Made by a program: the position numbers and the translations under genes. A stretch of DNA of 64,000 bases, taken from positions 1,602 to 65,601 of the forward strand of contig SVGO01000001.1 in assembly GCA_015056305.1 (NCBI GenBank). Direction: 5' to 3'. The notes under the pieces were generated by a model that did no database searches, had not been told where the DNA came from, and worked only from the letters and a program-made list of their open reading frames with translations. This document shows positions 568-31,129 of this stretch, piece after piece (position 1 is the stretch's first letter; every line of letters begins with the position of its first letter). This DNA is from Clostridiales bacterium (GTDB lineage: Bacteria > Bacillota > Clostridia > Christensenellales > Aristaeellaceae).

Positions 568-616
568 GAAAAAGCGCCCCGCCAGCACAAAGCCAGCAGG
601 GCGCAATTTTTATTTT
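568..616. terminator. bidirectional hairpin downstream of the holin gene
   Basis: gcgccc (574-579) pairs with gggcgc (599-604). An A-run precedes the hairpin and a T-run follows it. Confidence 0.45.
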
Positions 617-1068
617 GTTTCGTTGTGGCCAGCGTGCGCCACATCAAGGATCGTCTGAATCAGCGGAACATTCAGGCCGAGCAGATTCAGATTTTCCAGC
701 AGGCTGACCAGCTCCGTCGCAATGACGTAGGTCATCGCTGCGGTGCTGATACCCTCCATGCCCAGCGGCGTGCCGGTGTAGATGCACACCAGAACGATAA
801 GCCACTCAGCGCCCTTCTTGATGATGCCCTCAAGCATCACACGGCTGGACACCTTTCCGCTCTCGCTCTTCTGGCTCTTGCCCAGCACGGCGCATGCGAG
901 GCCGGTAAGAATGTCAGCCGCCTGCACGATCAGAACAGCCTGACCCAGCGCAGGCAGGCCAGTCCAGAAGCTGATGGCCAGACCGACGAGCGCGCCGATC
1001 CAGCCAAAGATATCTGTGAGAAAATCCACCAACCAATCCATAATTGTGTGAAAGAGTTTCATCTGCAT
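610..1068 (-). CDS. phage holin (multi-TM, toxin-secretion/phage-lysis holin type)
   Basis: 152 aa with several hydrophobic helices (WIGALVGLAISFWTGLPALGQAVLIV; WLIVLVCIYTG). Lies immediately downstream of the endolysin. Confidence 0.65.
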   Translation of the reverse strand: MQMKLFHTIMDWLVDFLTDIFGWIGALVGLAISFWTGLPALGQAVLIVQAADILTGLACAVLGKSQKSESGKVSSRVMLEGIIKKGAEWLIVLVCIYTGTPLGMEGISTAAMTYVIATELVSLLENLNLLGLNVPLIQTILDVAHAGHNETK

Positions 1069-1084
1069 TCTTTTCTCCTTGTTC

Positions 1085-1621
1085 TTAGTCCACGCTCCCG
1101 ATCAGCACGCGCCAATCACCGATAGGTTCAAAGTGATTGCCAGCCGAATCAATAATCGTAATCTTCGTATTGTTGGGATCCGTACCTGTATTGTTGGGGA
1201 CGACGTCGATATCGTTGGGAGCAGTCTGATCCAGAACAGCGATATACCGATGTTGGCCCAGCAGGTGCCAGCCACCATCCAGCGGAGTCTCGACCACACA
1301 GCCGGAGACAGAACTGGAATGAATCACCGTCCCCTTGTCCGTCACCAGACCAACGTGATGGATGTCTTCACCGCTGCGTTTGAACGCCAGCATGCCGCCG
1401 CGCGCACCTTCGATCCCCTCCTGCCGCCAGACCAGATGGCGGTACTTGCCGGATCTGTCAATGCTGCGCCACAGCCAGTTCGTGCCCTCGCAGCGATAAT
1501 CCGTCACGCCGCCAGCGCTGCGCTTGATCACATCGCGGATCAGCGCAATGCAGTCCATTTCTTTGTACGCAGTACCGAGACGCGCCTGCGCGGATCGAAT
1601 CGCATCATGCGCCTTGATCAC
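1085..1621 (-). CDS. endolysin, NlpC/P60-type cell-wall hydrolase
   Basis: Cys/His motif candidates (DCIALIRDV; IHHVGLV). GTG at 1621 has better GGAGG spacing than the track start at 1630. Paralog at 40819..41358. Confidence 0.75.
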   Translation of the reverse strand: MIKAHDAIRSAQARLGTAYKEMDCIALIRDVIKRSAGGVTDYRCEGTNWLWRSIDRSGKYRHLVWRQEGIEGARGGMLAFKRSGEDIHHVGLVTDKGTVIHSSSVSGCVVETPLDGGWHLLGQHRYIAVLDQTAPNDIDVVPNNTGTDPNNTKITIIDSAGNHFEPIGDWRVLIGSVD

Positions 1622-1683
1622 CCGTTCCACCTCCCTTACACAACACCCACCAGAACAGTAACGTAATCAAAAAAGCTTCTTCA

Positions 1684-4600
1684 TCAAATCTCACCCGCCT
1701 CTCTCTTCCTGCGCGCCATGTCCGTGACAATCAGCAACTTCGCATCGTCCACCATGTCTTTGACCAGCTTCGTGCGCTCGTCATCGTCCATCTTGCTCCA
1801 TGCCTTGCTCTGATTGCCGTAGCGTGCCTTGTCTTCCATAACCAGCCGCAGGCCGGGGAAGTCAACATCGTTACTCTTCGCATCTCTGTAGGGTCGGCCG
1901 CCATCGCCGTTGAACAACAGGTCACCATGCTGCGCGTTCACGCTGCGCTTTTCATCATCCGTCAGATCCATGATGATCGCCGCATCGCCGTAGTGCATTG
2001 CCTGCGCTTCTGTCTTGTTCAGCTTCAGCTCAGACTTGTTTGCTCCAATCAGGTCCGTCGGCAGGAAATTGCCCTCGCCCGTGCGATAAGCAAGATCCAG
2101 CAGTTCAACAAGCGCCTCATCGTTCTTCTCGCCGATGGTCGCCGTCGGGGTAAGGAAGCTGTCCAGCATCTGCATCACAGCATTGCCATGCTCGCCTTCC
2201 GGATTCCAGTAGCCATTCTGCAGCTGCTCGTCGCCCGTGATGTCCGTTTTAATAGGAAGCATCTGACGCAGCAGCGGCCAGCTCTGTACCATGTTCTGCT
2301 TAAGGGATGCCCAGATTGCATTGGAATCGCTGGTGTCGCGCACATAAGGATCTGTCGCTTTCGCCACAGCACGCACCCAAGAGGGCGTGAGGCGGTTCAC
2401 AAGCGAATTGGCAGAAGTCTGGATGAAGCGCTCGGCAATACCCGTCGCATCGCCATAGCCGCGGAATACGTCATTGAAAGCGGAGAGCATCGAGCTGTTG
2501 AACATCTCGTTCCAGGTGCTGGAAAGAACACCCTTGGTCAGCGCTTCCACAACATCCGCATTGCCCGTCGCATCTGCCAGATCCTTGACCAGATTCGCAC
2601 CGATCACCAGACCGCCGGCACCCGGCAGCGCCCAATCAATCTCATGCTTCTTGCCGCCGATCTCAAGGTACATGCCGTACGGATCGCCAAGCGCCTTGCG
2701 AACGCCGCGCACCTTCTCATCCTCTTCTTCACCATAACCAAACTTGAGCGCGCCTGCGCTTGCCAGCGCACAGCCGGCAGCTACAAGGCCCGTGCCCGTC
2801 AGGCCGCGGCCCACGTTCATAACAAAACGGCGCTGGTCGAATCCCGCGCCGTTATTGTATTTCATGTCCCACAGGCCATCCTTAATCAGCGACTTCGCCA
2901 GACCGACCGGGCTGTAATCCAGAAGACGCGCCGCAATATTTGTCGGGGTCTTCACGAACGGAATCACCATGTTGGCAACCGTTCCCCAGAAGGGGGATTC
3001 CTGCAGCTGGGCAATGGCCTTGCTGATTGTGCCATCTTCCTGGAAGACGCGCTTGGTTGCGCGCATCGTCGCTTCCTCGTGCATCTCTTCGGCAGTCATT
3101 TCACGCAGCACGCCGCCCTCATTCACCTTCATGCCCAGACGCTTGATGATCGCCAGCTCTTCGGCATAGCACTTCTCATAGAAGGGCCGGTCACCGATCT
3201 GCATCGCAAAGTCAACCATCGTCTTTCCGGCTTCAAGCATATCATTCTGGAACGTCCTGCCGCGGCCAGCCTGATTGATATCGTACTTTCGGCCGTGGCC
3301 TGTGTCCGTGTGCGTAATGAAATAGTCCTCAAAGGTCTGCGCAGCTTCACTCTTGAAGGCTTCCTTGCCCTGTGCACGCTCCTGCTTGTTGGCAATCGAA
3401 GTCGTGCGCGTGCCGGTCTGCTTAGAAACTGCCTTATCAACCAGCGTTCCGAGCGCCGTGGACAAGGATTCAAGCGGATTCATCAGGACGTTGGACGCCA
3501 CGTTGCGCACCCACGTTGCCGGGGAAGACAGCATATTGGCATACGTCCAAGATCTGAACTTCTCCATGAAGCTCGCCGGCGTGATGTTCGCCTGAGCGTC
3601 ATATACGCGGCTCAGCGCAATCTTGCCTTCTCTGGTCTTGGGGATGTCATTCTCCACGCCGCCCTGTGCAATCACTTCGCTCATCTGGCCGGCAATGTAA
3701 TTCAGGTCAGCTTCGGTCACAACCGCATAGCCTTCCTTCATGAATTCCAGCTGCTGGCAAAGCGTCAGCAGACCGCTGCCGCGTACGCCTTCAGGCGTTG
3801 CGATGATCGCGGAGAGCATCCTCTGCTTGAGCGTAGCATGCGCGTAGTCGCTGGGAAGCGCCGTGCTCATCAGACCATACTTCTTCGCCAGCTCCATCTG
3901 CGCAGCATTGAGCGGAAGTCCCCACGGATTGTTGCGGCTCGTCTCACCGTCCAGCTTGTCCAGTCTGTTCTTGAGTGTATCGGCCGCATCGTAAATATCC
4001 TGAATGTATTGCGGCACAAAATGAATCATACCCGTATCTTCGACAGGGCCAGGACCAATGGATTCTTGTACGCCATCTGCATCAGCTGCAAGCTGTGGAC
4101 CATCAAATGCTTCATCTGCGAGCCATCCATCCTTGTTGTCAAGCATGGTCTCCTGAAGCGCCGCACCATCAGGTGCGGATTCTTCACCCGTCCACGCAAT
4201 GCCCGGCGTTGTGTTCTCTGGCAGAATCTGACCGTCAAACTCTTCATCGGCCAGCGGGGTATCATCCATAAAGGTCTCTTGAAGCGCAGAGCCTTCAGGT
4301 GCAGATTCGTTTCCGGTCCATGCAGTAGACGGCCCACCATTCCTTTTGCTTGCCGATCCTGCCGCATTCCCGCCAACATTCCCGCTTCCAGATCCGGAAT
4401 AACCGCCCGTTCCGCTTCCCTGGCCAGCTGCACCAGTACCATCGCCATTGCCAGAACCCGCCGAAGTATTGCCCGTAGTACCACCAGCATTACCCGAAGC
4501 CGGTTTACCCTTCGGCGCTTCGTTGCCAATCGGGATATACTTGGTCGCATCCGTGTTCTTCTTCTTGGTATTGTACTGCTGCGCTTTGCGAATCGCTTCT

Positions 4601-7600
4601 GCCATCGCGCCTTCCGGCGTGAGGCGAAGACCGATCTTCAGGCTCTGAAGCGCGCGGCCCTGCTCCGTGGATTCTTCCAGCATGCGCATGGCCAGCATCG
4701 CCGCCGTCACGCTGTCACTGTTCCTCGTCGCATCTGCCATCGCTACAAAGGCAAGGGCATTATCATCCGCGGTATAGCTCTTCTTCTCTTTGTTCATGAG
4801 CATGGCAACTGTCGCATCGAGGCCGTCCCGGTCAAGCCGCTCCGTCGCTCTCTTCACCTGGTCGCGGTTGGTATCGCGCTCATATTCGCTGTCCTTCACT
4901 AGTTCCTTTACATGATCTTCAATGAAGTCCGCGCGCTGCATGGTGTTGTTGCCGAACTGACGGATACCGATGGATTTTTGCACGCTACTTTGCATAGACT
5001 GATTCTTGACACCGGTTCCGCTTTGCGGTACACTAGTGTTAGAAGAGGGCGTCGCTTCCGACCTGCCCCGGCTACCGTCCGGGGATCGGAGCTGAGCGTC
5101 CTTTTTTTCTTTTGTCTTTCGCGCATACAGCTGATAAACCCAACCACCATCGTCGCGCTCTTTCAGGTCGAGCCACAGCGTCATCGGCTTGTCACCATTC
5201 TCGTCACGATACACAAAATCATTGGAGAAGTAGTGCCACTCTTTCACGCCTTCATGCGTCGGAGATACCTTGCCGCTTTCCGCTTCATTGTCAACCTGTG
5301 TCACTTCACGCGCCATATCATGCAGATCGTCTGCCAGATTCAGCGTGATTGTTCGGTCTCCCGAAGAGCCATTTTTGCTGTGAACAACCTTGCCCAGATC
5401 AGTCTTAACCTGATTCGTCGGATCATAGTCCGGATCAAAATTAGCGGTGATCTTGCGGCTCTGGCCATCCATACCGATAACATCCAGCTCAATGGGATCT
5501 TTACTCCATACATTCTGCCACAGATCAACCAGACGGTTAATCTTTACGCTCTTTGGTGTATCCGGCGCGAAGTTGGATTCGTAGATACCCTTGCCATCAT
5601 CCGTCCTTCCAACAAGCGAATACTGCAGCTGCGTCTGCTCGACCGGTCGATTGTCCGTGTCATTCGTCAGCTCACTCATCGCTGCCGTCGGATCGCTGCC
5701 CGTCTCGCCTTCCTTGATCTTGGCCGATTTGCGCAGCGCCTGCTCCATCAGGTCGTGTGCCTTCTGAATTGCGTCATACTGTGCGCGTGCTTCAGGGCCG
5801 GCCTTTTTTGCTTTTTGGCGATTCAGGAACGTGCGAAGCTTCATGTACACGCGCTTGACAAAACTGCGCTTGCCGCTTTCAATCAACTGCTCAAAGAACA
5901 CTTCGTCGCCGCCGATCACCGTCTCCGTCGCCGCGGCTACCAGCTCGGCGTCAAGCTCGCTTTCGCTCAGCGTCACGCCATGCTTGCTGTATTCCTCGCG
6001 GATATCCTCACGGTCTCGCTCGGTCGCCGTTTCATCTCCGGCATACGCCGCTTCAAGCACAGCCTGCTTGTACTCCTCGTAGCCCTTCGACTTCTCAATG
6101 AAGTGCGTCAGTTCATGGAGCACAACCACCCTGCGCAGTTCACCTGCACCCAGCTTATTGGAAAGAACAAGCTGACCATTGGCCCGGTCGAACCATCCGC
6201 GCGTGCCGTCTGCCAGATTCGCAGTCACCAGCTTAATGCCCGTCTTCTTGTACAGGTCACTTGCCATCTTCTGCGTCACAGGATCGAGTGTACCTTCGGT
6301 TGTCTCGGTAATGTAGGCTTCAGCAACCGCGCTGCCAATAGACGCCTGAACACCGGCCAGCTGCTTCTTACGCTCGGCAAGAGCAACAATCGCTTCCTCC
6401 GGATGCGTCGTTTCTCCGTCAATGTAGCCGGGAGCCTGTGCCGCCAGATCTGCAAAGAAGCTGCCGTCCAGACTATTGCGGCTCTTGGTTTTGTCCTGCG
6501 TAAGGTTAAAGCCATACTTGCGGTTGAACTGAGGAATCGTCAGGCCGGTTTGGCTCTTGATCTCCGCTGCCTGCTGCGCGTCTACATAGATCGCGCGCGT
6601 ACGCAGATCCTTATATACCGGGGCCATGGTGGCCTTTTCCTGCGTCAAATTCTCTTTCTCTGCCGCTTCCTGAAGGGCAGCGGCCGCCTGTTCATCCTGC
6701 GCATTCAGCGCGTTCTCAGCGGCATTTCGCGCATCCTGCGTGGCCTCAGATTCTTGTGCTTCGCCCAGAAGCATGAGCCTTCTGTCTTCCAGCTCGCTGC
6801 GCTTCATGGATAGCTCATCGAATGCAGCTATATCGTCATCGGCATCAGCCTGGGCAATCTGCTCCTCAAGCCCAGCCAGCTGTGATTCTACCTCTTCGAT
6901 CTGAGCATCCAGCGTGCGCTTGCGGTTCTCGTTGTCATTCTGAAGCTGCGTGCGCTTCGCTTCCGCTTCCTGTGCCAGCTTGACCGCCGCAGCCTTGCGT
7001 GCATCCTGCATCTTCTCTTCGCGCACCTGATTGGCTTCGTAGGTCTTCTGCGCTTCCTCTCGCGCATGTTCCTTCTGACCCTGCTCAGCCTTGCTGATAT
7101 CGTCCAGCGCATTCACAGCCGCCTGCATGTTGCCGGCCGCCTTCTGCTCGTCGTAGTGCTTCCAGCCCTCTTCAATGCGAACCGTCGAAGCGTCTAGCTC
7201 CTGCTTGTGGCTGTCTGCCTGCTCCTGCAGCTTTTGGTGTTGGGCAATCTTGCCATCGCTGCCATCATCCCGGATCAGGACGTGTACCACCTTTTCATCC
7301 ATCTGCTGCGCATGCGCATCATCATTGATCGCAGCCGCCGTTTCCGGATTGCTCATGTCAGCCTTGGCCGCCTCGATGAATCCGGCAATATCCTTGCTCT
7401 TACCGCCCACAATATCCTTGGCCATGCGCACGCTGGTGATCGTGGTCACACTTGCGCCTGCCAGCGTAAACAGGCTGCTGGTAATCGCAGCATCCGGAAG
7501 CCCGATCATTACGTCGCGTCCAGCCTTAACCAGATCCACATCCGTCACGTTGAGCATTGCGCCCACTACATCAGCAGCGCCAATATCTTCGCCTGCATCA

Positions 7601-10600
7601 ATCTTGCGATAGATCGGGCCGAACATCTGATCCACCGCCTGCGCGGCGATATTTTCTTTCAGCTCATCCGATACAGCTTCATCAAATACGTTGCCTGCCG
7701 CAGTCGTAACAAATGTCTTGATGGCAGCTTTTGCCTTCATCGAACCGCTCGGATTCTTGCTCATGGCTTCAAACCATCCGGCGCGGCCCAGCGTTGTTGC
7801 GCCGGTCAGCTGGCCATAGATCTTTTCAAACGTGCCGCTGTTCGCCAGATGCATTGCTGCTGTGTCCCACGCAGCCATATGGCTGGCGCTGTTCAAGAGG
7901 TAGCCCTGCGCAAGGCGCGCGTCATAGTTCTGGCCGTAGCTGGTCACATCGTAGCCCAAGAAGAAACCTGCCGCTGCATTTCCGGTCAGCGCCGAGCCGG
8001 CGCCCGCCACGGTCGCGGAGATCGTGTTCTCCGTGATTGCGCTTGCAAAGCCATACCACCTGTTTTCGCCCGGCGTGCCGTTTTTCGCCATAAAGGTATC
8101 CAGCTGTGCCACGTTTTCACGCATCTGCGCCGCCGTCGAGCGAAGACCCCCCAGCGCCGTCGGATCAATGCCGATATCATAGATGTCGGTTGCGCTGTCC
8201 ATCGCCTGTTTCAGCGCCTTGGCATATTCCTCGCTCAGCGTGCCGCTGTCAATGAGCGCCGTCAGATCATCTCGATAGTAGTCTCGTCCATACGGGCCGA
8301 ACTCAGTCTGATAATGACCTGTCAATTTCTCCGCCGTGCGCACCACATTGGCCTGCGTCATGCCCTTATACAAGGAATCATTGAACGTGCCCCACCAATT
8401 CTGCGCGCCGCGGGCAATGCCGTATCCCGTCGCCGGGATCACGCCCACGCCCTCGCCCATGCCGATCAGCGTTTCCTTCTCTTCCGGCGTAATGCTTGCA
8501 CCCTGCTGCTGCATGCGCACATTTGCGCGCTGTGCCAGCTGATCCAGATTCATGCCGCCGATGCGATCATAGTACTGTTCCAGAGATAGGCCAAGAGACA
8601 ACGCCGTCTCCGTATCTTCATCCAGAAGAGCATGCATCTCACTCTTGATCGATGCAATGAAAGAGCCGGTATCCTTGACACCGCGCGCAGACAGATTCTT
8701 ATAAACGCTCGTCTGTTCAAAGCCGCCATATACCGGTTCGAAGTAATTGCGGTTCAGCTGGAAATTCATCACCGCGCGCAGCTCATCGTCCAGCACATCT
8801 TTCCATTCTGCCGTTGCATTCTCCTGAACAAGCGCCAGCTGCGCATCGCTGTACTGGCCGCTGAGAACAGCAGCGCGCGCATCTTCGAGCGCCTTTGCGC
8901 TCTTCTGCTCTTCCTCGGCGCGGATCTTATTTTCGTTTTCAATCAGCAGATTCCAGTTATTGTAAATCCCTTGAATCTTGCTGTGTCCATCTGAATTCTT
9001 CAGATAATATTCAAAGCCATTCTCACCTTCCGGGCATACCAGATCGCCCTTGGCATACGCCTGTCCGGCAGCATATACCACTTCGGTCAGGATCATCATG
9101 CCATCTCCGCGCAGCTCACGCGGGAATTCGTCGCTCATGATGTCCTGATATGCGCCGTAAATCGTCGTGCCAAAAGAACGCATGCTCTTGTCGGTGATGA
9201 ATTCAGGGCTGTTCGTGCCGAGTTCCATTTCGACCAGCTCCTGATTATTCAGAGCGCCATGCAATCTGCGCACGTTCTGATCCTTCATCAGCTCGTCAAT
9301 GTGTGCCCTGTCCTCCGGCGCAATCAGGTTGCCCTTGCCCTGATACATCAGCTCAAGCACTTCGCCATCGTCTGCAACAGGAATATACTCCGGCTTGTCC
9401 TGCTGAGCCTGTACCTGTGCCATGCCCGGCATATCTTTGTCTCCAAGCACAGTCTGCGTAAACAGCTGTACGCTCGGCACATTGGACGGAGCAGAGGAAG
9501 TCTCGCCGCTCTCCTGCTCAGTCTCCTTCACCGGGCTGCTTTCTTCCGGCCGCTGGGCAGGCGCTTCGTTATCCGCTGTTCCCTTTGCTTCCGGCTCTGC
9601 ATCGTCACCCGGTTTGGCATCCGTCTTGCCAAACAGAAATTCGTCGACACTCTGTACCGCATCACCCACGGCATCAAGGCCATTGTCAATCGCATCGCCA
9701 ACCTTTTCGATCCAGCGGCGGTTGTCCTTCTTCGGCTCTTCTTCCTGCTGCGGCCCCTGTGCTTCCGGCTGTTCCTGCGGCTTATCCGGCAGCTTGTCCT
9801 TGTGCGTAGCTACACCGAAGTACGCCTTTTCAAGTGCGCTTGTCAGATTGCGCTTGGCCAGAACATCATAGCTCTCATTGTCCTGAATACTGGCCAGCTG
9901 CAGGTGATACTGCTCAGCATTGAAACGGTCAATCTCCTCTCCCGTTCCCTGCTTAAAGAGCGTCTTGTATTCCTTGGCCAGGGAGTTATACTGCGTCTGC
10001 GTCAAGGAATAGCTGTCGCGGAACGTATCAATATCATCCGGCGGGAAGTAACCAAAGAATCGGGAACCTCGGCGCGAACACAGGCTCTTGAATGCCTTGA
10101 CAGCTGCTGCGCGATCATCTTTATCTGCAATACCCTGAATACCCTGCGTCACCATTTCCGGGCGCGCAGTATTGATGTTGATCGCGTTGCCGTTTACATC
10201 GACAAGACCGGACAGAATACCCATGCTGCTCTGCGGCTTGCTGAACAGACGGTCGCCCAGCAGCTGCTCGGCGCTGTAAAGCACATCGTCATAATTCTTA
10301 TTGTGCTTATTGGCCCATGCTTTATAGACCGTAACTTTGTCCCAGTCGCTGTCCAGCGTGGACGCAAAGTAAGCCAGCTGCTTTTCGTCCTTGATAGAAG
10401 CGATATTCACAGAGATATCATTTACACCCCAATCGCGAACGCTGGAAGGAATGAAACCGCCTTCTCGATTCTTCTGCTCGATCTGCTCCCGATGCGGTTC
10501 CAGAGTATCCGGCAGATACAGTTCGCCTGCCTTTACGACTTCTACATCAACACCACGGGTATAATTTCTCTGATGAATCAGAAAATGCTGATCTTCTGTC

Positions 10601-10857
10601 ATCGGGCTTCTCAGCGGCCCCATGGAAACCTTTAAGCCATCATCCGCTTTTTCAAACTTAACGGCTTCCGGCTGTCGCATCTGTACATCCTTAGATACAG
10701 CTTCCGCTTTCGGATCCGACACCGGCGCAGGCTCGGGCGCAGCAGGCTGCGGCTCTTCCACTTCCGGCGCTTTTACCTTCTTATCCTCTTCGTCTTCCTG
10801 ACGGCTCCGGCTGTAAAAGCTCTTAGCCGAATTTCTTGCGCTCGATCCTCTTGCCAT
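1684..10857 (-). CDS. giant 3,057-aa multi-domain virion-module protein (polyvalent/ejection-protein candidate) with a zincin HExxH motif
   Basis: Uninterrupted ORF with AAGGAG RBS before the ATG at 10857. HELTH encoded at nt 6103-6117. E/Q/A/K-rich coiled-coil-like tract around nt 6650-7290. Gly/Ala hydrophobic segments. G/S/N linker and tandem repeat at nt 4090-4500. Confidence 0.8.
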   Translation of the reverse strand: MARGSSARNSAKSFYSRSRQEDEEDKKVKAPEVEEPQPAAPEPAPVSDPKAEAVSKDVQMRQPEAVKFEKADDGLKVSMGPLRSPMTEDQHFLIHQRNYTRGVDVEVVKAGELYLPDTLEPHREQIEQKNREGGFIPSSVRDWGVNDISVNIASIKDEKQLAYFASTLDSDWDKVTVYKAWANKHNKNYDDVLYSAEQLLGDRLFSKPQSSMGILSGLVDVNGNAININTARPEMVTQGIQGIADKDDRAAAVKAFKSLCSRRGSRFFGYFPPDDIDTFRDSYSLTQTQYNSLAKEYKTLFKQGTGEEIDRFNAEQYHLQLASIQDNESYDVLAKRNLTSALEKAYFGVATHKDKLPDKPQEQPEAQGPQQEEEPKKDNRRWIEKVGDAIDNGLDAVGDAVQSVDEFLFGKTDAKPGDDAEPEAKGTADNEAPAQRPEESSPVKETEQESGETSSAPSNVPSVQLFTQTVLGDKDMPGMAQVQAQQDKPEYIPVADDGEVLELMYQGKGNLIAPEDRAHIDELMKDQNVRRLHGALNNQELVEMELGTNSPEFITDKSMRSFGTTIYGAYQDIMSDEFPRELRGDGMMILTEVVYAAGQAYAKGDLVCPEGENGFEYYLKNSDGHSKIQGIYNNWNLLIENENKIRAEEEQKSAKALEDARAAVLSGQYSDAQLALVQENATAEWKDVLDDELRAVMNFQLNRNYFEPVYGGFEQTSVYKNLSARGVKDTGSFIASIKSEMHALLDEDTETALSLGLSLEQYYDRIGGMNLDQLAQRANVRMQQQGASITPEEKETLIGMGEGVGVIPATGYGIARGAQNWWGTFNDSLYKGMTQANVVRTAEKLTGHYQTEFGPYGRDYYRDDLTALIDSGTLSEEYAKALKQAMDSATDIYDIGIDPTALGGLRSTAAQMRENVAQLDTFMAKNGTPGENRWYGFASAITENTISATVAGAGSALTGNAAAGFFLGYDVTSYGQNYDARLAQGYLLNSASHMAAWDTAAMHLANSGTFEKIYGQLTGATTLGRAGWFEAMSKNPSGSMKAKAAIKTFVTTAAGNVFDEAVSDELKENIAAQAVDQMFGPIYRKIDAGEDIGAADVVGAMLNVTDVDLVKAGRDVMIGLPDAAITSSLFTLAGASVTTITSVRMAKDIVGGKSKDIAGFIEAAKADMSNPETAAAINDDAHAQQMDEKVVHVLIRDDGSDGKIAQHQKLQEQADSHKQELDASTVRIEEGWKHYDEQKAAGNMQAAVNALDDISKAEQGQKEHAREEAQKTYEANQVREEKMQDARKAAAVKLAQEAEAKRTQLQNDNENRKRTLDAQIEEVESQLAGLEEQIAQADADDDIAAFDELSMKRSELEDRRLMLLGEAQESEATQDARNAAENALNAQDEQAAAALQEAAEKENLTQEKATMAPVYKDLRTRAIYVDAQQAAEIKSQTGLTIPQFNRKYGFNLTQDKTKSRNSLDGSFFADLAAQAPGYIDGETTHPEEAIVALAERKKQLAGVQASIGSAVAEAYITETTEGTLDPVTQKMASDLYKKTGIKLVTANLADGTRGWFDRANGQLVLSNKLGAGELRRVVVLHELTHFIEKSKGYEEYKQAVLEAAYAGDETATERDREDIREEYSKHGVTLSESELDAELVAAATETVIGGDEVFFEQLIESGKRSFVKRVYMKLRTFLNRQKAKKAGPEARAQYDAIQKAHDLMEQALRKSAKIKEGETGSDPTAAMSELTNDTDNRPVEQTQLQYSLVGRTDDGKGIYESNFAPDTPKSVKINRLVDLWQNVWSKDPIELDVIGMDGQSRKITANFDPDYDPTNQVKTDLGKVVHSKNGSSGDRTITLNLADDLHDMAREVTQVDNEAESGKVSPTHEGVKEWHYFSNDFVYRDENGDKPMTLWLDLKERDDGGWVYQLYARKTKEKKDAQLRSPDGSRGRSEATPSSNTSVPQSGTGVKNQSMQSSVQKSIGIRQFGNNTMQRADFIEDHVKELVKDSEYERDTNRDQVKRATERLDRDGLDATVAMLMNKEKKSYTADDNALAFVAMADATRNSDSVTAAMLAMRMLEESTEQGRALQSLKIGLRLTPEGAMAEAIRKAQQYNTKKKNTDATKYIPIGNEAPKGKPASGNAGGTTGNTSAGSGNGDGTGAAGQGSGTGGYSGSGSGNVGGNAAGSASKRNGGPSTAWTGNESAPEGSALQETFMDDTPLADEEFDGQILPENTTPGIAWTGEESAPDGAALQETMLDNKDGWLADEAFDGPQLAADADGVQESIGPGPVEDTGMIHFVPQYIQDIYDAADTLKNRLDKLDGETSRNNPWGLPLNAAQMELAKKYGLMSTALPSDYAHATLKQRMLSAIIATPEGVRGSGLLTLCQQLEFMKEGYAVVTEADLNYIAGQMSEVIAQGGVENDIPKTREGKIALSRVYDAQANITPASFMEKFRSWTYANMLSSPATWVRNVASNVLMNPLESLSTALGTLVDKAVSKQTGTRTTSIANKQERAQGKEAFKSEAAQTFEDYFITHTDTGHGRKYDINQAGRGRTFQNDMLEAGKTMVDFAMQIGDRPFYEKCYAEELAIIKRLGMKVNEGGVLREMTAEEMHEEATMRATKRVFQEDGTISKAIAQLQESPFWGTVANMVIPFVKTPTNIAARLLDYSPVGLAKSLIKDGLWDMKYNNGAGFDQRRFVMNVGRGLTGTGLVAAGCALASAGALKFGYGEEEDEKVRGVRKALGDPYGMYLEIGGKKHEIDWALPGAGGLVIGANLVKDLADATGNADVVEALTKGVLSSTWNEMFNSSMLSAFNDVFRGYGDATGIAERFIQTSANSLVNRLTPSWVRAVAKATDPYVRDTSDSNAIWASLKQNMVQSWPLLRQMLPIKTDITGDEQLQNGYWNPEGEHGNAVMQMLDSFLTPTATIGEKNDEALVELLDLAYRTGEGNFLPTDLIGANKSELKLNKTEAQAMHYGDAAIIMDLTDDEKRSVNAQHGDLLFNGDGGRPYRDAKSNDVDFPGLRLVMEDKARYGNQSKAWSKMDDDERTKLVKDMVDDAKLLIVTDMARRKREAGEI

Positions 10858-10866
10858 AGTTTCTCC

Positions 10867-11646
10867 TTAAATACCCTGTCCCACAAGAACTGTGGTCTTC
10901 TTTGTGCCGCTGCTGGTCTTCTTCTGGCCTGTCGTGAAGTTCTCGCCATTCTCGATATCACCGCTCAGAGAAAGCGATTCGCTGCCGCTTTCTGTGCTTT
11001 GGCTGCCGGAAGACTGACTGCCCAGCGCTGCGCTGACAGCAGACATATAGTTGCTGTTGTAACGATCCTTCTGATTCTGAAGCAGTTCCTGCGTCTTCGC
11101 CGCCAGCTGTGCAGCATAGTCCGTATTCAGGCGGCCCTGCGTCTGGGCGTTCTGCTTCGCAGCCTGCGTGATCTGCTGCTGTACCTGCCCCTGCTGGCGC
11201 GCGCCTTCGTCCGTCAGCTGTCTGATCGTCTCGGCAAGCATATCACCCTGCTGGCTCAGCTTGTCCAGCGTATAGCTGCTTCGGCCCATGCCGCGCGCAA
11301 GAGCCGCCGTTTCCACCTGCGCAGCGTTCTGCTTGTACGCCGCCTGCTGCTGAGCAATCGCCTGCGCAAGCTGCACAGCAATATCTTCCTTCTCCTGATT
11401 AAGCGCAAGCTCGGCAGCATCATACTGCTGCTGCGCCGCCTCAAGACCAGCATGAAGCTGCGGACGCAAAAGAGATTCTGCAAAGCTCCTGACCTCATCC
11501 TCGGTCATCTGAGGACTGAGGCCGGAAAGGATCGTCTGCATCAGTTCTTTATCCAGAATCTTTCTGGTTGTCGTCTGATGCTGTGTGTTGCTCGTGCTCT
11601 TGGAATTGGATTCAGTCCAGTTCCTCGCCACATAGTTTTCAGCCAT
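10867..11646 (-). CDS. Q/A-rich virion-module protein, function unknown
   Basis: ORF track 10867..11652. The ATG at 11646 follows GAGGTGA. Long Q/A-rich helical composition. Confidence 0.5.
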   Translation of the reverse strand: MAENYVARNWTESNSKSTSNTQHQTTTRKILDKELMQTILSGLSPQMTEDEVRSFAESLLRPQLHAGLEAAQQQYDAAELALNQEKEDIAVQLAQAIAQQQAAYKQNAAQVETAALARGMGRSSYTLDKLSQQGDMLAETIRQLTDEGARQQGQVQQQITQAAKQNAQTQGRLNTDYAAQLAAKTQELLQNQKDRYNSNYMSAVSAALGSQSSGSQSTESGSESLSLSGDIENGENFTTGQKKTSSGTKKTTVLVGQGI

Positions 11647-11830
11647 GGTCACTCACCTCTTCCAGTTTGCTGATTCTCTCTTTAAGCTCTTTAATTTCCC
11701 TGATCCGATTGTTGTTGGCCTTCCACGAAGCCATACAAAACCCTTTCAGGAACAGAATCAGATTGCGCAATGTGGTATACACATTCCCGCCATGTGGGAA
11801 TTCCGGAACACGCGGTTGCTCAAATGCCAT
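11639..11830 (-). CDS. small hypothetical protein
   Basis: ORF track 11639..11836. The ATG at 11830 is preceded by GAGGTG. C-terminal KELKERISKLEE helix. Confidence 0.35.
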   Translation of the reverse strand: MAFEQPRVPEFPHGGNVYTTLRNLILFLKGFCMASWKANNNRIREIKELKERISKLEEVSDHG

Positions 11831-11832
11831 TG

Positions 11833-13320
11833 TCACACCTCATCCATGCTGTATTCCACCTGCACGCCGCCAAAGATTCTCCAACCCGCTGTGCGTCCTC
11901 CGCTTTGGATACGCAGCTTCACGCGTACGCCTACGTTCTGAATCTTCACCCGGTAATCCCGCCGGTTTTTTGAAAGCAGCACCGTCTTCTTTTTTTCGCG
12001 CCTGTCTGTCATAATCGTGATGTCCAGCGGCAGATCATTTTCATCCGCCTCTGCTGTAAATCGAAGCACGAAATCCCGCTTCATCAGCGCCTTTCCCAGA
12101 TCCAGCCATGCGGTTTCCCATATGCTCTGCATCGGCGTATCCAAATAGCTGCCCGCCTTGGGATCGTTGTAGCGCAGCACCTCATGCGGATCGTCTGCCT
12201 GCGTATAATACACGGCATTGTTCATCACAAAGAAATCTCTGACGCGGATTCCCGTGCGAAGCATGAACGTACCCCGCTCTGTGTCAAATTCAATGACAGC
12301 ATTGTTCTGCGTCAGTACATCCTCCTCGTTTTCCTTCACGCGCAGCGCAAGATAATATACGCGATCGCACAAACAGGCAGTCTCCGTCGTTTGTTTTCCT
12401 TGCATCATCATGCGCATCGTTTCATGCAGCGCATTGCGCGCAAGCAGCGAAAGCGTCGATCCGTCGTACATGCCAATACCGCCCTGCGAAAGAAAGTACA
12501 CATGAAGCCGATCGGTGCAAATCGTGCTTGCCTGCACTGGACCGTCTGTGCCATATGCCTGCGTGATGGTGAAGCTCGAAGGATCTGTGCCGCGGATTTC
12601 GTATACCGAATTCTGCTTGAATGCCAAAAGGTACCCGCCGAAAGGCTCCACTGACACAAATGCATCGCCATCCCATGATGGCTGTTGGATGACGCCGCCG
12701 CCCAACTCCGGTGTTTCCGCATGGTTTGTCCAGTCAAACGGATCATACGGCCGGGAATAAAACACGCTGTCCGGATATCCAGGCGCACCCGTACCCCAGA
12801 TGCGCTCCGCATGCCGTCCAAGCCGTGCAAAATTAACCGCCGCATAATCGCTGCCCAGCTTCAGCGTCTTTTTCTCCACACCAAGCGTATGACCATACAC
12901 GGCAATCATCCCGTCTCTGGCATTGGTCATCAGCAGAATGTCCTCCGTTTTGCCATCCACAGCTGCTTCATAATTGACGCTGTTCCATCTATTTGAAGAA
13001 AACCCTTCCGCCCGCTTGATCCATCCTTCCGTACCCATCGTGTAGGTGTAGATCGCACCACCCGCACCTGCAACAAACACGTCCGGATCATCCGGCCTGT
13101 TTCTGCGATAAAAGCGCGTCAGCGTTTCAATTGGTGCGCCCAGCGCAGGAAAGGCGCGGCTTGTTCCGTAGCTTGTGGCCAGCAGGCCGCACTCCGTGCG
13201 TATGTTCTGTGCGCGATAGGCATAGTCCACGCCGATGTTCGTATCGCCCGCCGCCTGATATACGCCCTTCGGCGTGGGAATCATGAAGCTTCCTTCATAG
13301 CTGCTGTCCTTGATCGCCAT
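11833..13320 (-). CDS. putative tail/nozzle structural protein (beta-rich)
   Basis: The track ORF runs to 13572, but that N-terminus overlaps the upstream gene. The ATG at 13320 (MAIKDSSYEG) follows the upstream stop at 13335. Position is downstream of portal and adaptor. Confidence 0.45.
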   Translation of the reverse strand: MAIKDSSYEGSFMIPTPKGVYQAAGDTNIGVDYAYRAQNIRTECGLLATSYGTSRAFPALGAPIETLTRFYRRNRPDDPDVFVAGAGGAIYTYTMGTEGWIKRAEGFSSNRWNSVNYEAAVDGKTEDILLMTNARDGMIAVYGHTLGVEKKTLKLGSDYAAVNFARLGRHAERIWGTGAPGYPDSVFYSRPYDPFDWTNHAETPELGGGVIQQPSWDGDAFVSVEPFGGYLLAFKQNSVYEIRGTDPSSFTITQAYGTDGPVQASTICTDRLHVYFLSQGGIGMYDGSTLSLLARNALHETMRMMMQGKQTTETACLCDRVYYLALRVKENEEDVLTQNNAVIEFDTERGTFMLRTGIRVRDFFVMNNAVYYTQADDPHEVLRYNDPKAGSYLDTPMQSIWETAWLDLGKALMKRDFVLRFTAEADENDLPLDITIMTDRREKKKTVLLSKNRRDYRVKIQNVGVRVKLRIQSGGRTAGWRIFGGVQVEYSMDEV

Positions 13321-13334
13321 CCCCTGCCCCCGTT

Positions 13335-13886
13335 TCAGTTGGTCGCCGAATAAAAATTCGTATATGTCGTCACGCTGCCCGTGCCCACAGGCTTGAGCAT
13401 GCTCATCATTTCGTAAAAGCTCTGCTTGTAATACTGTGCGCGACTCTGCTTGGCCAGATTGCCGCTGGAAAGGTGCTTGTAACAGATATACTGTACGAGC
13501 GCATAATGCACATGTTCTGGAATGCGCGGTACATCCAGTTCCCCTGACAGCGGCGGATACGTCACTTGGCAAACAACGACCACATCCTCGTCCCGCGCCG
13601 TCGTGTGATAGACGCCATCGCCCTGCGCGTCTGCGCGGAAATGCACAATGCGCCCATCTTCATCCTGCATCTGCACAACGCAGTCAATGTCGTAACCGGA
13701 AAGATTCACCATTCCGCGCTCATCCGCCTGGGAAAGATAGGTTTCCCTTGGCTTGTAATGTTGGCGCAGAATGAGCTGATATCCCATATTCAGATACATC
13801 ATGAACTTCTGATCGTAATCGTTGATGTCAGCCGGATCTTCATCCAGCTCCAGCATCACATGATGCAGGATTGCACTCACGTTCAC
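13335..13886 (-). CDS. putative head-tail adaptor/completion protein
   Basis: GTGA overlap with the portal stop. Clear paralog at 44055..44609 (LELDEDPxDxxxYDQxFxMYxNxGYQLILRQxYKPRET). Confidence 0.45.
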   Translation of the reverse strand: MNVSAILHHVMLELDEDPADINDYDQKFMMYLNMGYQLILRQHYKPRETYLSQADERGMVNLSGYDIDCVVQMQDEDGRIVHFRADAQGDGVYHTTARDEDVVVVCQVTYPPLSGELDVPRIPEHVHYALVQYICYKHLSSGNLAKQSRAQYYKQSFYEMMSMLKPVGTGSVTTYTNFYSATN

Positions 13887-15745
13887 GCCATCGCGCCTCC
13901 CTTCATCGAAGCATCCAAAGCGCCCTGCGCTGAGCTTGCCGCGCCGTTTGCAATCAACGCAGACGCGCCGCCCTGCGTCCTGCGGCTGCGCTCAAGGCCT
14001 TCGATATTCAGCCTCTGATCCTCAATCGTCTTGGCCTGCTGCTGATTGAGTGCTTCCAGCTGCGCAAGCTTCTGCTGGATCTGACTGGATTTCATGACCG
14101 CCTTGAGGATTGCACCCTTGTTCGGGTAACCCTGAAGCAGACCAAGGATCACTTCCGTCGGCATCGGGTTGCCATTCTGCGCGCACATCTCTGCCGCTTT
14201 GAACAGCAGCTCATTGAAGCTCTGGATCTGTTCCGGGCTGCTGCGCTGCACCTGAACGCGCACCGTATACGCAGGCTTGGGAAGATCGTCGCCCTCTGCT
14301 TTCGTGGTGACCAGCTCAATCAGACGATCTTTCATGCTGCCGCTGCTTTCATAACCGCCGATGATGCGCAGCTTGCGGCCCGGCTCCATGTATTCGCTGA
14401 GCACCCACAAAATCTGTTCAATCATCTCGCGGAACGCGCTCTTGAAGCTCGCCGTATGCCAGCGCGTGATCTTCGTGCCGGCGTCCTGAAGCGCCTTGAC
14501 CGCCGTGAAAGCCGTTACACCCTTGCCACCCTCACCGCGCGCGAACTGATTCTGTCCGCAATCCTGCTTCATCGTCTCACTCAGATACTGCGCCATCTGA
14601 TAGATCTGACCATTGAGCGGCTGCGCCTGCACAGTCTGCATCACTTCGCGAATATCGTTGCCGTCCCATTCAATAAAGTCACGGCTCATGTCCGCAACCT
14701 CATTCAGATTGACGCCGCTGTTCCTGCGAATGAACGTGCGCTGCTTGCTGCTCGCGCGTGCATTATCATCAATGTATTTAAAGTAGCGGTCAATGGTAGC
14801 CTGTGTATCTTCGTAGTCGTGCATCAAGCCCGTACCAAAGGGACGAGTCGGAACAGTACGATACCTGTAGAAGATAAACGGATACTGGCCATGCGCATAG
14901 ATTCCCTCTGCGTATTCGCCCTTGCGCTCCACGTTAAAATCCAGTTCAGAAGAGTACAGCAGCGCACCGCCGGCTAGCTGCGCCATGTGCACACGATACC
15001 GCCTCTTTGCAGCATCATATCTTTTATACCAGAATTCAATCAGCGTCACCTTCTGATCGCCTTCCGGTGTCTGCACCACAGCCTGTTCGTCCTGCCTGGT
15101 ATACTCATCCTCACGAACATAACCCTTGGCAAGAGGATAATGCTCTTCCACCCACGCAATCGTGGTATGTGTCACCTTGAAGATCGCGCGGCCGTCCTGG
15201 ATATTCTCATACTGCGGATCAGGGAAGATGTCTTCTGGATGCCAATTCAGTACATTGACCATGCCCTCGCCGCCCATGGCGTCGTTATCCCAAAAGATCT
15301 CTGCAACGCCTGTACCGACAACAGCAGCATCTTCCATGAGCTTCTGATACTTACTTTCCCATCCACTCTGATACAGCACAAAGGAAACGACATCCGTCAT
15401 CTCTTCCGCGCTATTCATCGTCTCTTCCCGTTCCGGCACCATGACCGCCTCGGGCATGTTGTCCACCTGGTCGGCAATCACGTTATCAATACTGGAATTG
15501 AGCGTGCTGCCTGCCGGAGAAGTGTTGCTCTTCTTGTCGTGACGCAAGCGGCGCATCTTGCGCGCCTCCCGGATCTCGTTATGCTCTTCCCTGTGCTGAT
15601 CATAGAAGAAGCGGAACAGCTCATAGCCGCGCCGCACCAGATTTTTCTGTTCTTCCGTCAGCGGCTGTTCGCCCATACTCGCATACCGCCCGGAATCCAA
15701 CCGAACATCGCCCGGCAGAGCGGGCTTTTTCTTTTCTCTGACCAA
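13883..15745 (-). CDS. putative portal protein
   Basis: 620 aa. TTG start preceded by GGAGGG. Size and position within the head module. No motif-level proof. Confidence 0.55.
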   Translation of the reverse strand: MVREKKKPALPGDVRLDSGRYASMGEQPLTEEQKNLVRRGYELFRFFYDQHREEHNEIREARKMRRLRHDKKSNTSPAGSTLNSSIDNVIADQVDNMPEAVMVPEREETMNSAEEMTDVVSFVLYQSGWESKYQKLMEDAAVVGTGVAEIFWDNDAMGGEGMVNVLNWHPEDIFPDPQYENIQDGRAIFKVTHTTIAWVEEHYPLAKGYVREDEYTRQDEQAVVQTPEGDQKVTLIEFWYKRYDAAKRRYRVHMAQLAGGALLYSSELDFNVERKGEYAEGIYAHGQYPFIFYRYRTVPTRPFGTGLMHDYEDTQATIDRYFKYIDDNARASSKQRTFIRRNSGVNLNEVADMSRDFIEWDGNDIREVMQTVQAQPLNGQIYQMAQYLSETMKQDCGQNQFARGEGGKGVTAFTAVKALQDAGTKITRWHTASFKSAFREMIEQILWVLSEYMEPGRKLRIIGGYESSGSMKDRLIELVTTKAEGDDLPKPAYTVRVQVQRSSPEQIQSFNELLFKAAEMCAQNGNPMPTEVILGLLQGYPNKGAILKAVMKSSQIQQKLAQLEALNQQQAKTIEDQRLNIEGLERSRRTQGGASALIANGAASSAQGALDASMKGGAMA

Positions 15746-24269: not shown

Positions 24270-24496
24270 CAGTCATACTCCTTCTTAAGCAGACGCCGGG
24301 CCACCTTCAGATTGTCCCGGACAACAGATTGATGCGGTTCTTTAGGCCACTTGCGATAGAGTTCGCCCCAGTCTTTCGGGGCAGGCTTTGCATAGAAAGC
24401 ATCACGATCTTTCTGGAACTTAATCAAGCGCTCCTTCTCTTCCTTTGCTTCCTGAATCAGCGCCATCGCTATAGCCAGATTATCCATGCGCTTCAT
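24269..24496 (-). CDS. hypothetical protein
   Basis: 75 aa, charged and helical. Confidence 0.45.
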   Translation of the reverse strand: MKRMDNLAIAMALIQEAKEEKERLIKFQKDRDAFYAKPAPKDWGELYRKWPKEPHQSVVRDNLKVARRLLKKEYD

Positions 24497-25160
24497 CCTT
24501 CCACAGCATCCTGCAGCTTCGGCTTCCTTCCGGACAGCTGCCGCTCACGCATCCCGGCCCCGCCTTTTCAAAGATCTTGGGCGCTTCCTTCTGGCATTCC
24601 TTGAGCATGGCCCACGCCAGTTCCCGGATCTCCCATTGCGCATGTGTGCAGCAGCGCAGCTCAAAGAAGTGCAGCAGCTCGCGCGCGTTCATCGTCACCA
24701 GCAGGCAAGTCGCCGCCGCATTGGGCAGTACAAAGCGTGCGTCTTCGTTGGCATGCGTCTTCTTTCTGCCGTTCTGCACCAGGCGCTCAGACCATTCGCA
24801 GTACCATTGATTGATCGTCATCATCTGCCGGGCGAATTCATCTTCAGCTTCCTTGCCCAGCTTGCTGATCTCCGGCGGGATCACAAAGTCAAAGCCATCC
24901 ATGGACATATAGCGCTGAGACTGTACAGAGAAGGACGCAATGCGGTGGCGCGTGAGCTGGGCCAGCAGCGCACGGCTGACGCCGGACACATAGAACGTGA
25001 AGGTTGCATGCTCCGTCACAGAAAGATGATTGCCATCAAGCGCATGCTCAAGCGCCTTGCTTGTGTTCCCGTTGCCGGAACAGATGGAAGCTGCGAAGCC
25101 TGCCAGCCAATCCGGATACTGCGGCTTCTGAATCAGGGTAACTCTCGGCTTAACCTTCAT
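24480..25160 (-). CDS. thyX: FAD-dependent thymidylate synthase ThyX
   Basis: ThyX signature RHRIASFSVQSQRY. ATG at 25160. Confidence 0.9.
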   Translation of the reverse strand: MKVKPRVTLIQKPQYPDWLAGFAASICSGNGNTSKALEHALDGNHLSVTEHATFTFYVSGVSRALLAQLTRHRIASFSVQSQRYMSMDGFDFVIPPEISKLGKEAEDEFARQMMTINQWYCEWSERLVQNGRKKTHANEDARFVLPNAAATCLLVTMNARELLHFFELRCCTHAQWEIRELAWAMLKECQKEAPKIFEKAGPGCVSGSCPEGSRSCRMLWKDEAHG

Positions 25161-25479
25161 GGATAGCCACCTTCTTTCCCTGCCTTCTTTTGCTCTTCGG
25201 CGCTGCCAGATATCTGGCAATGCTGCGAACACTCACGCGCTTACCTTCGCACGCACCTTCGATGCGGCCGTCGGCCAGCATCGCATAAACCGTCGCGCGC
25301 GTTACGCTCAGAATCTGCGCGGTCTGCGTCTTGTCCACATACTCTCCATACCTGTTGACAAGTTCTTTTTCAGTCTTAATTGTGCTGTTGTCCCACAGGA
25401 TGGAATGCAGCCGCTGCTCAAGAAATTCGATGCGCTTTTCCATATCTTCAATGCGCGCCATCATCAGTTCATCACTCAT
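25150..25479 (-). CDS. excisionase-family (MerR-like) HTH DNA-binding protein
   Basis: TQTAQILSVTRATVYAMLADGRI. The ATG at 25479 follows GAAGGGAGA. Confidence 0.5.
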   Translation of the reverse strand: MSDELMMARIEDMEKRIEFLEQRLHSILWDNSTIKTEKELVNRYGEYVDKTQTAQILSVTRATVYAMLADGRIEGACEGKRVSVRSIARYLAAPKSKRRQGKKVAIHEG

Positions 25480-30814: not shown

Positions 30815-31129
30815 TTACTCGTTTTCAATACGTTTCTTATACCGGGCGCATTGGCGCACGCTCCGGTTAAGTGATTCTGCAGCAGTTTCCAAACTCATCG
30901 CGTTGAGATAATACATGGCGCAGAATGCGTATTGTTCCGGCTTCATGCTGTCCATGTGTTTGCGCGCCTCTTTCTCTACCCGGATCATGCGCTGTGTCTC
31001 TGCTCTGAGCTTGTTGTCAAAATACTTTTTCTCGTTCTCCGTCATCGCCTTGTGCAGCTGGTTCTTCAGACCACGAATCAGCAGCACCTGGGCGCGCACA
31101 GTTTGAAAAGCCTTTCCCCTCTCCGTCAT
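30815..31129 (-). CDS. small HTH protein (sigma region-4-like)
   Basis: C-terminal MSLETAAESLNRSVRQCARYKKRI. ATGA overlap with the dnaB stop. Confidence 0.4.
   Translation of the reverse strand: MTERGKAFQTVRAQVLLIRGLKNQLHKAMTENEKKYFDNKLRAETQRMIRVEKEARKHMDSMKPEQYAFCAMYYLNAMSLETAAESLNRSVRQCARYKKRIENE

Follow-up and report, generated by a model that had tools for sequence, protein, structure and literature searches.

A 3,057-residue prophage protein of a Clostridiales bacterium is a probable polyvalent ejection protein with a C-terminus related to internal virion protein D

The giant gene and its architecture

The stretch of DNA analysed here (the window) comprises 64,000 nucleotides (nt) of contig SVGO01000001.1 from a Clostridiales bacterium (assembly GCA_015056305.1) and contains a prophage, at one end of which lies a giant gene on the minus strand (1684-10857). 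The gene starts with ATG and continues uninterrupted for 3,057 residues plus a stop codon; its product, which we call the giant, is recorded at NCBI as MBE5798325.1, a 'hypothetical protein' from a metagenome-assembled genome of a Clostridiales bacterium. Profile comparisons link its C-terminal part to IVP-D (internal virion protein D) of marine T7-like podoviruses, and we consider it likely that the giant is carried inside the phage particle and ejected at infection.

An AGGAG Shine-Dalgarno sequence, read from the sequence at 10863-10867 (minus strand), stands 5 nt upstream of the start codon, overlapping the TAA stop codon (10867-10869) of the upstream gene for a 259-residue protein, which suggests translational coupling of the giant to the structural operon. 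Independent assemblies (JGI, ENA, Logan and NCBI) contain the identical 3,057-residue protein on 24 or more contigs, and collinear homologues exist at 36-83% identity, so the open reading frame (ORF) is real and no assembly accident. An earlier interpretation made from the letters alone (the sequence-only reading) had described an uninterrupted ORF of about 9.2 kb led by a ribosome-binding site and had named a frameshift splitting it as an outcome that would undo this; the description holds, and none of the assemblies contains such a frameshift.

From its N- to its C-terminus the giant consists of an N-terminal module (N-module), a coiled coil, an HExxH domain, a cassette, a helical domain termed H2, a G/S/N linker with repeats, and a C-terminal module (C-module), the borders being drawn from BLAST and phmmer mapping onto homologues. 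Scans of the whole giant and of ten overlapping 400-residue windows against Pfam, PHROGs and NCBIfam returned nothing significant. The windowed Pfam scan had been proposed in the sequence-only reading, and its outcome was divided: no conventional tape-measure family appeared, and MPTase-PolyVal and the LPD families, suspected there, found no match in the giant. The same scans, whole and windowed, gave no match to the LPD3 model (PF18798) or to any other domain of the polyvalent network, and Phage_Mu_F, the MuF/SPP1 gp7 domain, was likewise not matched in the Pfam scans, the relatives having only MuF_C, an RNase-like C-terminal domain. A PDB sequence search with the whole giant, PDB profile searches with A1 (the alignment of the C-module from which the module hidden Markov model, HMM, was built) and with A2, and a tblastn search of 50,697 phage records with the giant's C-terminus all gave no match.

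The C-terminal module is related to internal virion protein D

The C-module (1687-4017, minus strand; residues 2281-3057, core 2404-2934) is almost all alpha-helical, and no Pfam model scored against it in the giant or in its relatives. The sequence-only reading had left this region unassigned; it is now matched to marine IVP-D. The A1 HMM picks one ORF in Syn5, namely gp45, an 'internal virion protein' (E 9.9e-10, in an alignment that spans the signature motifs), and one in P-SSP7, namely gp16, a 'T7-like internal core protein' (E 5.6e-8, against 0.24 for the second best). When aligned by hhalign to the gp16-position proteins of Syn5 and P-SSP7, the C-module scored 97.7% (E 1.7e-12). A local hhalign run gave 97.3% over 463 columns, and the specificity control, against the gp15-position proteins (IVP-C), gave 0.3%. 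With a divergent family member as query, tblastn reached proteins named 'internal virion protein D' in Pelagibacter phage HTVC011P (E 3e-5, the query being P0017) and in a Mediterranean metagenomic (MedDCM) phage (E 4e-7).

The AlphaFold2 model of residues 2281-3057 is almost wholly helical, with a predicted local distance difference test score (pLDDT) of 75.6 and a predicted template modelling score (pTM) of 0.64. Foldseek found 47 matches for this model in BFVD at E <= 1e-3. Those annotated as 'internal virion protein' come from Pelagibacter phage EXVC018P (E 2.4e-13) and from Synechococcus phages S-CBP2, S-CBP3 and S-RIP1, and the matches also include segments of giant uncultured-phage proteins annotated as containing LPD, MuF_C or PolyVal-ART domains. 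At the level of profile comparison, the C-terminal ~650 residues of the giant are thus shown to be homologous to the gp16-position IVP-D of marine T7-like podoviruses.

Distribution, motifs and cargo of the C-terminal module

At about 780 residues, the C-module is the core of a family of at least 223 proteins found by profile search, most of them 1,600-1,900 residues long and encoded on contigs of ~38-45 kb. It is always C-terminal (168 sequences), behind upstream cargo with a median of 852 and a maximum of 2,814 residues, and only 3 of these 168 proteins reach 3,000 residues. Upstream Pfam domains in the relatives include LPD3, MuF_C, PBECR3 (PF18812) and ART-PolyVal, as well as LPD23, and one member carries PLD, a ResIII helicase and a zeta toxin.

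Two features mark the module. The signature motif PFVKTPTN (2938-2961, minus strand; residues 2633-2640) has a PFxKTPxN-like counterpart in 167 of the 168 module-bearing proteins and aligns with FPFVKTGHN of Syn5 gp45. A conserved Gly-rich hydrophobic helix, LTGTGLVAAGCALASAGAL (2746-2802, minus strand; residues 2686-2704), has a 19-residue Kyte-Doolittle (KD) mean of 1.52, the strongest in the giant; in 198 proteins such a helix follows PFxKTPxN at a distance of ~49 residues, with a median KD of 1.48 and values of at least 1.6 in 44 of them. The sequence-only reading had taken Gly/Ala-rich stretches of the giant as compatible with membrane insertion, which their hydropathy does not support: by the same 19-residue mean no stretch is of transmembrane grade, and the first of those quoted lies below 1.3.

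On related contigs the gene callers shortened the giant and called spurious antisense genes, and the database lengths for the family are therefore unreliable. For instance, P0042 was called at 736 residues and is really an ORF of 2,239 residues (5492-12211 of the related locus L004). The idea that 'short' C-module proteins are stand-alone genes was accordingly rejected, at least P0042 being a truncation made in gene calling. In the window, antisense 'shadow' ORFs of up to 991 residues lie within the giant gene (1927-4902, 4912-6813, 7207-8589 and 9259-10635, all on the plus strand).

The N-terminal module and the LPD38-ended giants

The N-module (7108-10683, minus strand; residues ~59-1250) comprises a conserved domain (~90-360), a spacer that is acidic and rich in Pro (~360-480), and a large region (480-1250); it contains weakly hydrophobic Gly/Ala stretches, and the residues most strongly conserved in it are for the most part G, Y, P, A and D. 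An exhaustive search of 1.84 billion representatives with residues 1-1200 returned 87 clusters, nearly all of them giants of 2,300-3,600 residues in which the region is collinear at the N-terminus. We refer to these proteins as the clade.

Of the 54 clade giants with at least 2,000 residues, 35 have the C-module at their end and the other 19 lack it. All eight of the scanned giants that lack the C-module carry LPD38, and a C-terminal profile of the LPD38 giants matches the C-terminal ~600 residues of phi24B gp47 (E 6.4e-24). That the LPD38-type C-terminus might be a diverged copy of the C-module was considered and rejected (hhalign 0.2%). By these profile comparisons, the one N-module is found joined to one or the other of two C-terminal modules that are unrelated, each linked to virion-internal proteins.

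The N-module itself has no library match, and no relative of it was detected among the IVP-C, IVP-D, gp47 or N4 proteins. Profile comparison gave no support to the proposals that it is a fused equivalent of IVP-C (gp15) or corresponds to the N-terminal part of marine gp16. The possibility that either the C-module or the N-module is present in phi24B gp47 was likewise rejected, only its LPD38-type end and its HExxH region being related to the clade.

The middle of the giant

A coiled-coil-like tract rich in E, Q, A and K (6358-7110, minus strand; residues ~1250-1500) follows the N-module; it is recognised by composition and conserved only among close orthologues. Residues ~1200-1400 are E/A/Q-rich, contain no Pro and have 2-5 Gly per 100 residues, a composition that bears out the coiled-coil-like tract seen by the sequence-only reading. 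At the related locus L015 (5943-14620) the giant is split into an ORF of 1,370 residues with the N-module and one of 1,539 residues with the HExxH domain, LPD3, H2 and the C-module. A natural division into two genes was considered for L015 and is not favoured, the break looking like a frameshift inside the coiled coil; the split may represent an indel from sequencing, a pseudogene or a genuine form with two genes.

The next domain is zincin-like (5719-6288, minus strand; residues ~1524-1713) and is common to P0016, P0018, P0022-28 and P0055. Its HExxH motif, HELTH (residues 1581-1585), lies at 6103-6117 (minus strand), exactly where the sequence-only reading had placed a zincin motif, and HExxH is found at the equivalent place in 53 of the 54 clade giants. 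The predicted topology, a helix, three strands, the HExxH helix and a further helix (pLDDT 60-87), is the zincin layout. Matches to DUF6782 (E 0.002) and Peptidase_M78 (E 0.046) at this site are below the Pfam threshold, and a profile of the region matches the HExxH region of phi24B gp47 with an E of 6.8e-5, computed against that single target. As modelled, the domain is a probable zincin.

Cassette A (4978-5520, minus strand; residues ~1780-1960) is of mixed alpha/beta type and recurs in P0002-4, P0006 and P0018. The slot that it fills holds LPD3 in P0007, P0009 and P0010, another cassette (B) in P0005 and P0055, and nothing in P0011-15; thus where the orthologue P0009 has LPD3 at 1788-1905, the giant has an unrelated cassette. 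In orthologues with 61-83% identity elsewhere, alignment marks the slot between the HExxH domain and H2 as a site of cassette exchange.

H2 (4498-4977, minus strand; residues ~1961-2120, or ~1940-2120 in the homology mapping), which is helical in the model, precedes the C-module in many members (P0016, P0017, P0019-21, P0041, P0044, P0045, P0049, P0055 and P0057-60). Between it and the C-module lies a lineage-specific insertion (4018-4497, minus strand; residues ~2121-2280), a G/S/N-rich linker with 24 Gly in 70 residues and then two acidic repeats of ~40 residues, whose pairwise alignment score is 98.5 against 28.6 +/- 5.8 for shuffles. The linker with tandem repeats claimed by the sequence-only reading is therefore present as two protein repeats, and there is no tandem repeat at the DNA level there. 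Most orthologues lack the insertion and join H2 almost directly to the C-module; only P0007 aligns unbroken.

Prophage context

All neighbours of the giant are co-oriented with it, in the order small and large terminase, a scaffold-sized gene, capsid, a 90-residue gene, portal, a 183-residue adaptor candidate, a protein of ~490 residues, a 63-residue gene, the 259-residue protein, the giant, NlpC/P60 and holin. The sequence-only reading had put the giant between the head and adaptor genes and the lysis cassette, and this order is borne out. The major capsid protein matches phrog_1357, and the portal (13883-15745, minus strand) is P22-like (PF16510, E 2.8e-21; phrog_156, E 3e-47). The adaptor candidate (13335-13886, minus strand) has a faint precomputed match to SU10_adaptor. 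PHROG matches and conserved synteny make the next protein (~483-495 residues; 11833-13320, minus strand) a virion protein and a candidate nozzle or internal protein, its matches being phrog_511, 'internal virion protein' (E 9e-10), and phrog_3287, 'virion structural protein'. The 259-residue protein (10867-11646, minus strand) is Q/A-rich and coiled-coil-like, with a weak match to DUF7934; it is a conserved neighbour of the giant, with equivalents of 249-334 residues in the related loci L004, L006, L015 and L016. A PDB sequence search with the 483-residue and 259-residue proteins gave no match.

Directly downstream of the giant is the lysis pair (610-1630, minus strand), made up of NlpC/P60 (1085-1630) and the holin (610-1068), beyond which lie host genes (a two-component system). 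A tyrosine integrase lies at 39125-40519 (plus strand). The element is a prophage of about 40 kb, an extent that the integrase fits, with a morphogenesis module of short-tailed type. G+C climbs from about 55% to 60-64% past about 46 kb, which fits host DNA. No tape-measure, tube, sheath, chaperone, Dit or Tal gene is present in the window's morphogenesis module; a tape-measure signature with tube or sheath genes beside it was the finding that would have told against the sequence-only reading, and neither appeared.

Giants of 2,239-3,519 residues occupy the equivalent slot in L004, L006, L015 and L016. In these loci 2-5 fibre-like genes (collagen, Gly-rich, Flg_new, CBM_5_12) adjoin the giant, as a rule after it, at 12208-16200 in L004, 14617-17515 in L015, 20609-23780 in L016 and 7198-9987 in L006; the corresponding region of the window is 1-1684, where no gene stands between the giant and the lysis pair. 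The window prophage has no fibre-like gene beside the giant, and its receptor-binding protein is therefore unaccounted for.

A further case is a block of 12.3 kb that is 99.88% identical between two prophages, L006 and L007 (7639-19968 in each). The block starts exactly at a gene boundary and holds a 526-residue Flg_new protein, a 249-residue protein, the 2,773-residue giant P0022, an endolysin and a holin. L006 has a podovirus-type module and L007 a siphovirus-type tail module, with a 1,013-residue gene of tape-measure size, Dit and Sipho_Gp37 beside P0022. Since the identical P0022 sits behind both types of tail module, gene content argues that the giant would belong to the head and cargo side and not to one particular tail.

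Comparison with known systems

Syn5 gp45, P-SSP7 gp16 and the IVP-D of HTVC011P are homologous to the C-terminal ~500-650 residues of the giant. The motifs in common are MLSxPxT..N, PFxKTxxN, the Gly-rich helix and GD..D..P, and both the marine proteins and the giant are all-alpha and encoded in a podovirus structural operon, downstream of the genes for adaptor and nozzle. The marine proteins, however, have 770-1,415 residues, whereas the giant has 3,057, with about 2,300 residues of unrelated sequence upstream. Its phage also differs from theirs in having a Clostridiales host, a temperate life and a P22-type portal and, unlike the marine T7-like phages, lacks recognisable separate gp14- or gp15-like genes.

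Published HMM-HMM comparisons treat the P-SSP7 gp16-position protein as an IVP-D homologue, tied to T7 (PMC4819975; Hardies et al. 2016). In the same work, IVP-D homologues host domains destined for the cytoplasm, such as the N4 virion RNA polymerase (vRNAP) and H66 gp60, and a giant of a Stx phage is listed as IVP-D in its Table 2 (PMC4819975). N4 gp50, a protein of 3,500 residues that is encapsidated and injected, has an HExxH MPTase region and is described as an IVP-D homologue with a cytoplasmic enzyme. Its HExxH region lines up with that of the giant at a score that is not significant. Unlike N4 gp50 the giant has no RNA polymerase: no similarity to the N4 vRNAP was found, in keeping with the sequence-only reading, which had found no polymerase catalytic motif.

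The polyvalent proteins (Iyer et al. 2017, PMC5512222) are likewise giant and multidomain, belong to portal-terminase phages and are encoded beside virion genes. The single HExxH domain of the giant, with its predicted zincin layout, would resemble their MPTase hub, and cassettes are swapped between its orthologues. Homologues of its C-module carry domains of the polyvalent network, though the giant itself reaches no Pfam polyvalent family. It also lacks the MuF/SPP1 gp7 domain that serves as a head anchor, and the IVP-D-like C-module is a candidate anchor instead.

The podovirus protein phi24B gp47 (the class of VT2-Sakai orf71) resembles the giant in its size of ~2,800 residues and its place at the end of the late region; it has polyvalent domains, and its HExxH region is weakly similar to that of the giant. 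It is found in virions by proteomics and is invisible in cryo-electron microscopy maps, and the authors propose that it is an encapsidated ejection protein (bioRxiv 10.64898/2026.04.10.717836). It differs from the giant in having a Gram-negative host and shows no overall sequence similarity to it, the two C-terminal modules being unrelated. Nearer in host, prophages phi1 and phi4 of Clostridium clostridioforme LM41 have unusually large ORFs of 8 kb at their 3' ends, reported without domain analysis (PMC11318856). By description only, these are like the giant, each being a hypothetical ORF at the end of a prophage, taking up about 20% of the genome, with weak similarity to LPD3.

Proposed role and alternatives

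We think it likely that the giant is encapsidated and serves as a polyvalent ejection (pilot) protein in a temperate Clostridiales phage of podovirus type, judging from the homology of its C-module and from the analogy with proteins such as phi24B gp47. A virion-packaged protein of polyvalent or ejection type had been suggested in the sequence-only reading, and it gains support from the relation of the C-module to IVP-D and from the polyvalent Pfam domains in C-module relatives. In outline, the giant would be made late and built into the procapsid through its C-module, as IVP-D is in T7-like phages, and at infection would leave through the portal and tail channel, ahead of the DNA or with it. 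The C-module might then help to extend or seal a conduit across the thick wall and the membrane, a stage at which the PFxKTPxN segment and the Gly-rich hydrophobic helix may become exposed, and the parts upstream of it would be delivered into the cytoplasm. Once inside, the zincin-like domain may process the polyprotein into functional pieces or act against host targets, as has been suggested for polyvalent proteins (PMC5512222), and the cassette and N-module would act on host or defence functions.

Several observations weigh against this interpretation. We infer the presence of the giant in the virion by homology and analogy. Its membership of the canonical IVP-D family is only transitive and rests on the published HMM-HMM work (PMC4819975), because T7 gp16 and N4 gp50 were undetected with the profiles used here: the A1 HMM has no match in T7 gp11-gp17, hhalign of A1 and A3 against T7 gp16 stays below 1%, and HMMs of four modules of the giant score near or below zero against N4 gp50. 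Nor did structure provide the link, Foldseek of the C-module model against the PDB, including the T7 core and ejectosome, giving a best E of 0.22 at a TM-score of ~0.1. The Gly-rich hydrophobic helix is only borderline for membrane insertion, to judge from its median KD. As for the zincin-like domain, MPTase-PolyVal (PF18818) has no match in the giant at E <= 1, and a model of the HExxH, cassette and H2 region (mean pLDDT 56.5) found nothing in the PDB by Foldseek (best E 0.07). The gene content of L007 shows that a role in tail extension would not be needed there and cannot be the whole story. Finally, a 2022 review calls ejection proteins typical of podophages of Gram-negative hosts (PMC8954989).

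We consider it unlikely that the giant is instead an external tail component, that is, a giant fibre, spike or tail-tip protein for binding or digesting the cell wall, which would remain outside the cell. It does occupy the place of podovirus fibre genes, behind the adaptor and nozzle candidates, and has a Gly/Ser-rich linker, and in L006 and L007 a giant, a Flg_new-domain protein and the lysis genes move together as a single block. However, the conserved C-terminus is an all-helical bundle in which no beta-helix, fibre, CBM or lysin domain is seen, and its homology is to internal virion proteins. The window prophage has no other fibre-like gene before the lysis genes, unlike L004, L006, L015 and L016, but those relatives encode separate fibre-like genes besides a giant of their own, and the cargo of relatives (ART, RNase-like, helicase, zeta toxin) acts inside cells.

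We also give little credence to a non-virion role, in which the giant would be a conflict or accessory protein of the prophage, expressed in the cell from the prophage's end as a moron of anti-defence, superinfection-exclusion or toxin-like kind. The extreme end of a prophage, beside the host junction, is a typical moron position, families of polyvalent domains occur in non-virion conflict systems too (PMC5512222), and the giant is exchanged as a cassette among phages that differ in their tails. Against this, the gene is co-oriented with a structural gene whose stop codon its ribosome-binding site overlaps, leaving no room for a promoter of its own; its place in the structural operon is fixed across distant relatives, and its homologues include proteins annotated as internal virion proteins.

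That the giant is a tape-measure protein or tail-length determinant of a long-tailed phage is effectively refuted, since its size, its position before the lysis genes and its Gly-rich hydrophobic segments and coiled coil, common in tape-measure proteins, are set against the lack of any tape-measure family match, the absence from the window module of genes for tail tube, sheath, chaperone, Dit and Tal, the P22-like portal with a faint SU10-adaptor match beside it, and the separate tape-measure-sized gene, with Dit and Sipho_Gp37, that accompanies a family member in L007.

Novelty and implications

Giant IVP-D or polyvalent fusion proteins are already known, namely N4 gp50, H66 gp60 and phi24B gp47, and giant ORFs at the ends of Clostridiales prophages have been noticed in passing before (PMC11318856). 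Three points seem not to have been described before, namely the IVP-D type of the C-terminal carrier in hundreds of polyvalent proteins of Firmicutes phages, the presence of such a carrier in phages of a Clostridiales host, and the conserved N-module of 1,200 residues. The matter is of some consequence, as giant hypothetical genes take up as much as a fifth of the genome in many prophages of gut Firmicutes, where they regularly escape annotation or are mis-called.

If its C-module is a carrier of IVP-D type, proteins like the giant would acquire a testable role, being packaged in the head and then injected, and could be read by a simple rule, the carrier at the C-terminus and swappable effectors upstream. 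The biology of ejection proteins would then take in phages of Gram-positive gut bacteria as well. New activities in anti-defence or host takeover might be looked for in the effector cassettes and the N-module, and the proteins might serve as vehicles for delivering protein cargo with phage particles. A broader proposal, which we offer tentatively and regard as rather doubtful, is that the C-module is a general capsid-targeting and ejection carrier for a very large class, as yet without a name, of polyvalent effectors from phages of gut Firmicutes, that delivery of T7 type by internal virion proteins would then operate in phages of monoderm Clostridia too, and that the N-module is a new injected machine or a component of the conduit and not an optional effector.

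Other genes of the prophage

Elsewhere the prophage encodes, as separate proteins, an 860-residue fusion of SNF2 and an N6-adenine methylase (26383-28965, minus strand) and a C5 cytosine methylase (28899-30536, minus strand). Other polyvalent proteins have the SNF2-methylase pair fused within their own giant polypeptide. Further genes encode a ThyX thymidylate synthase (24480-25232, minus strand) and a DnaB-type helicase (31126-32394, minus strand).

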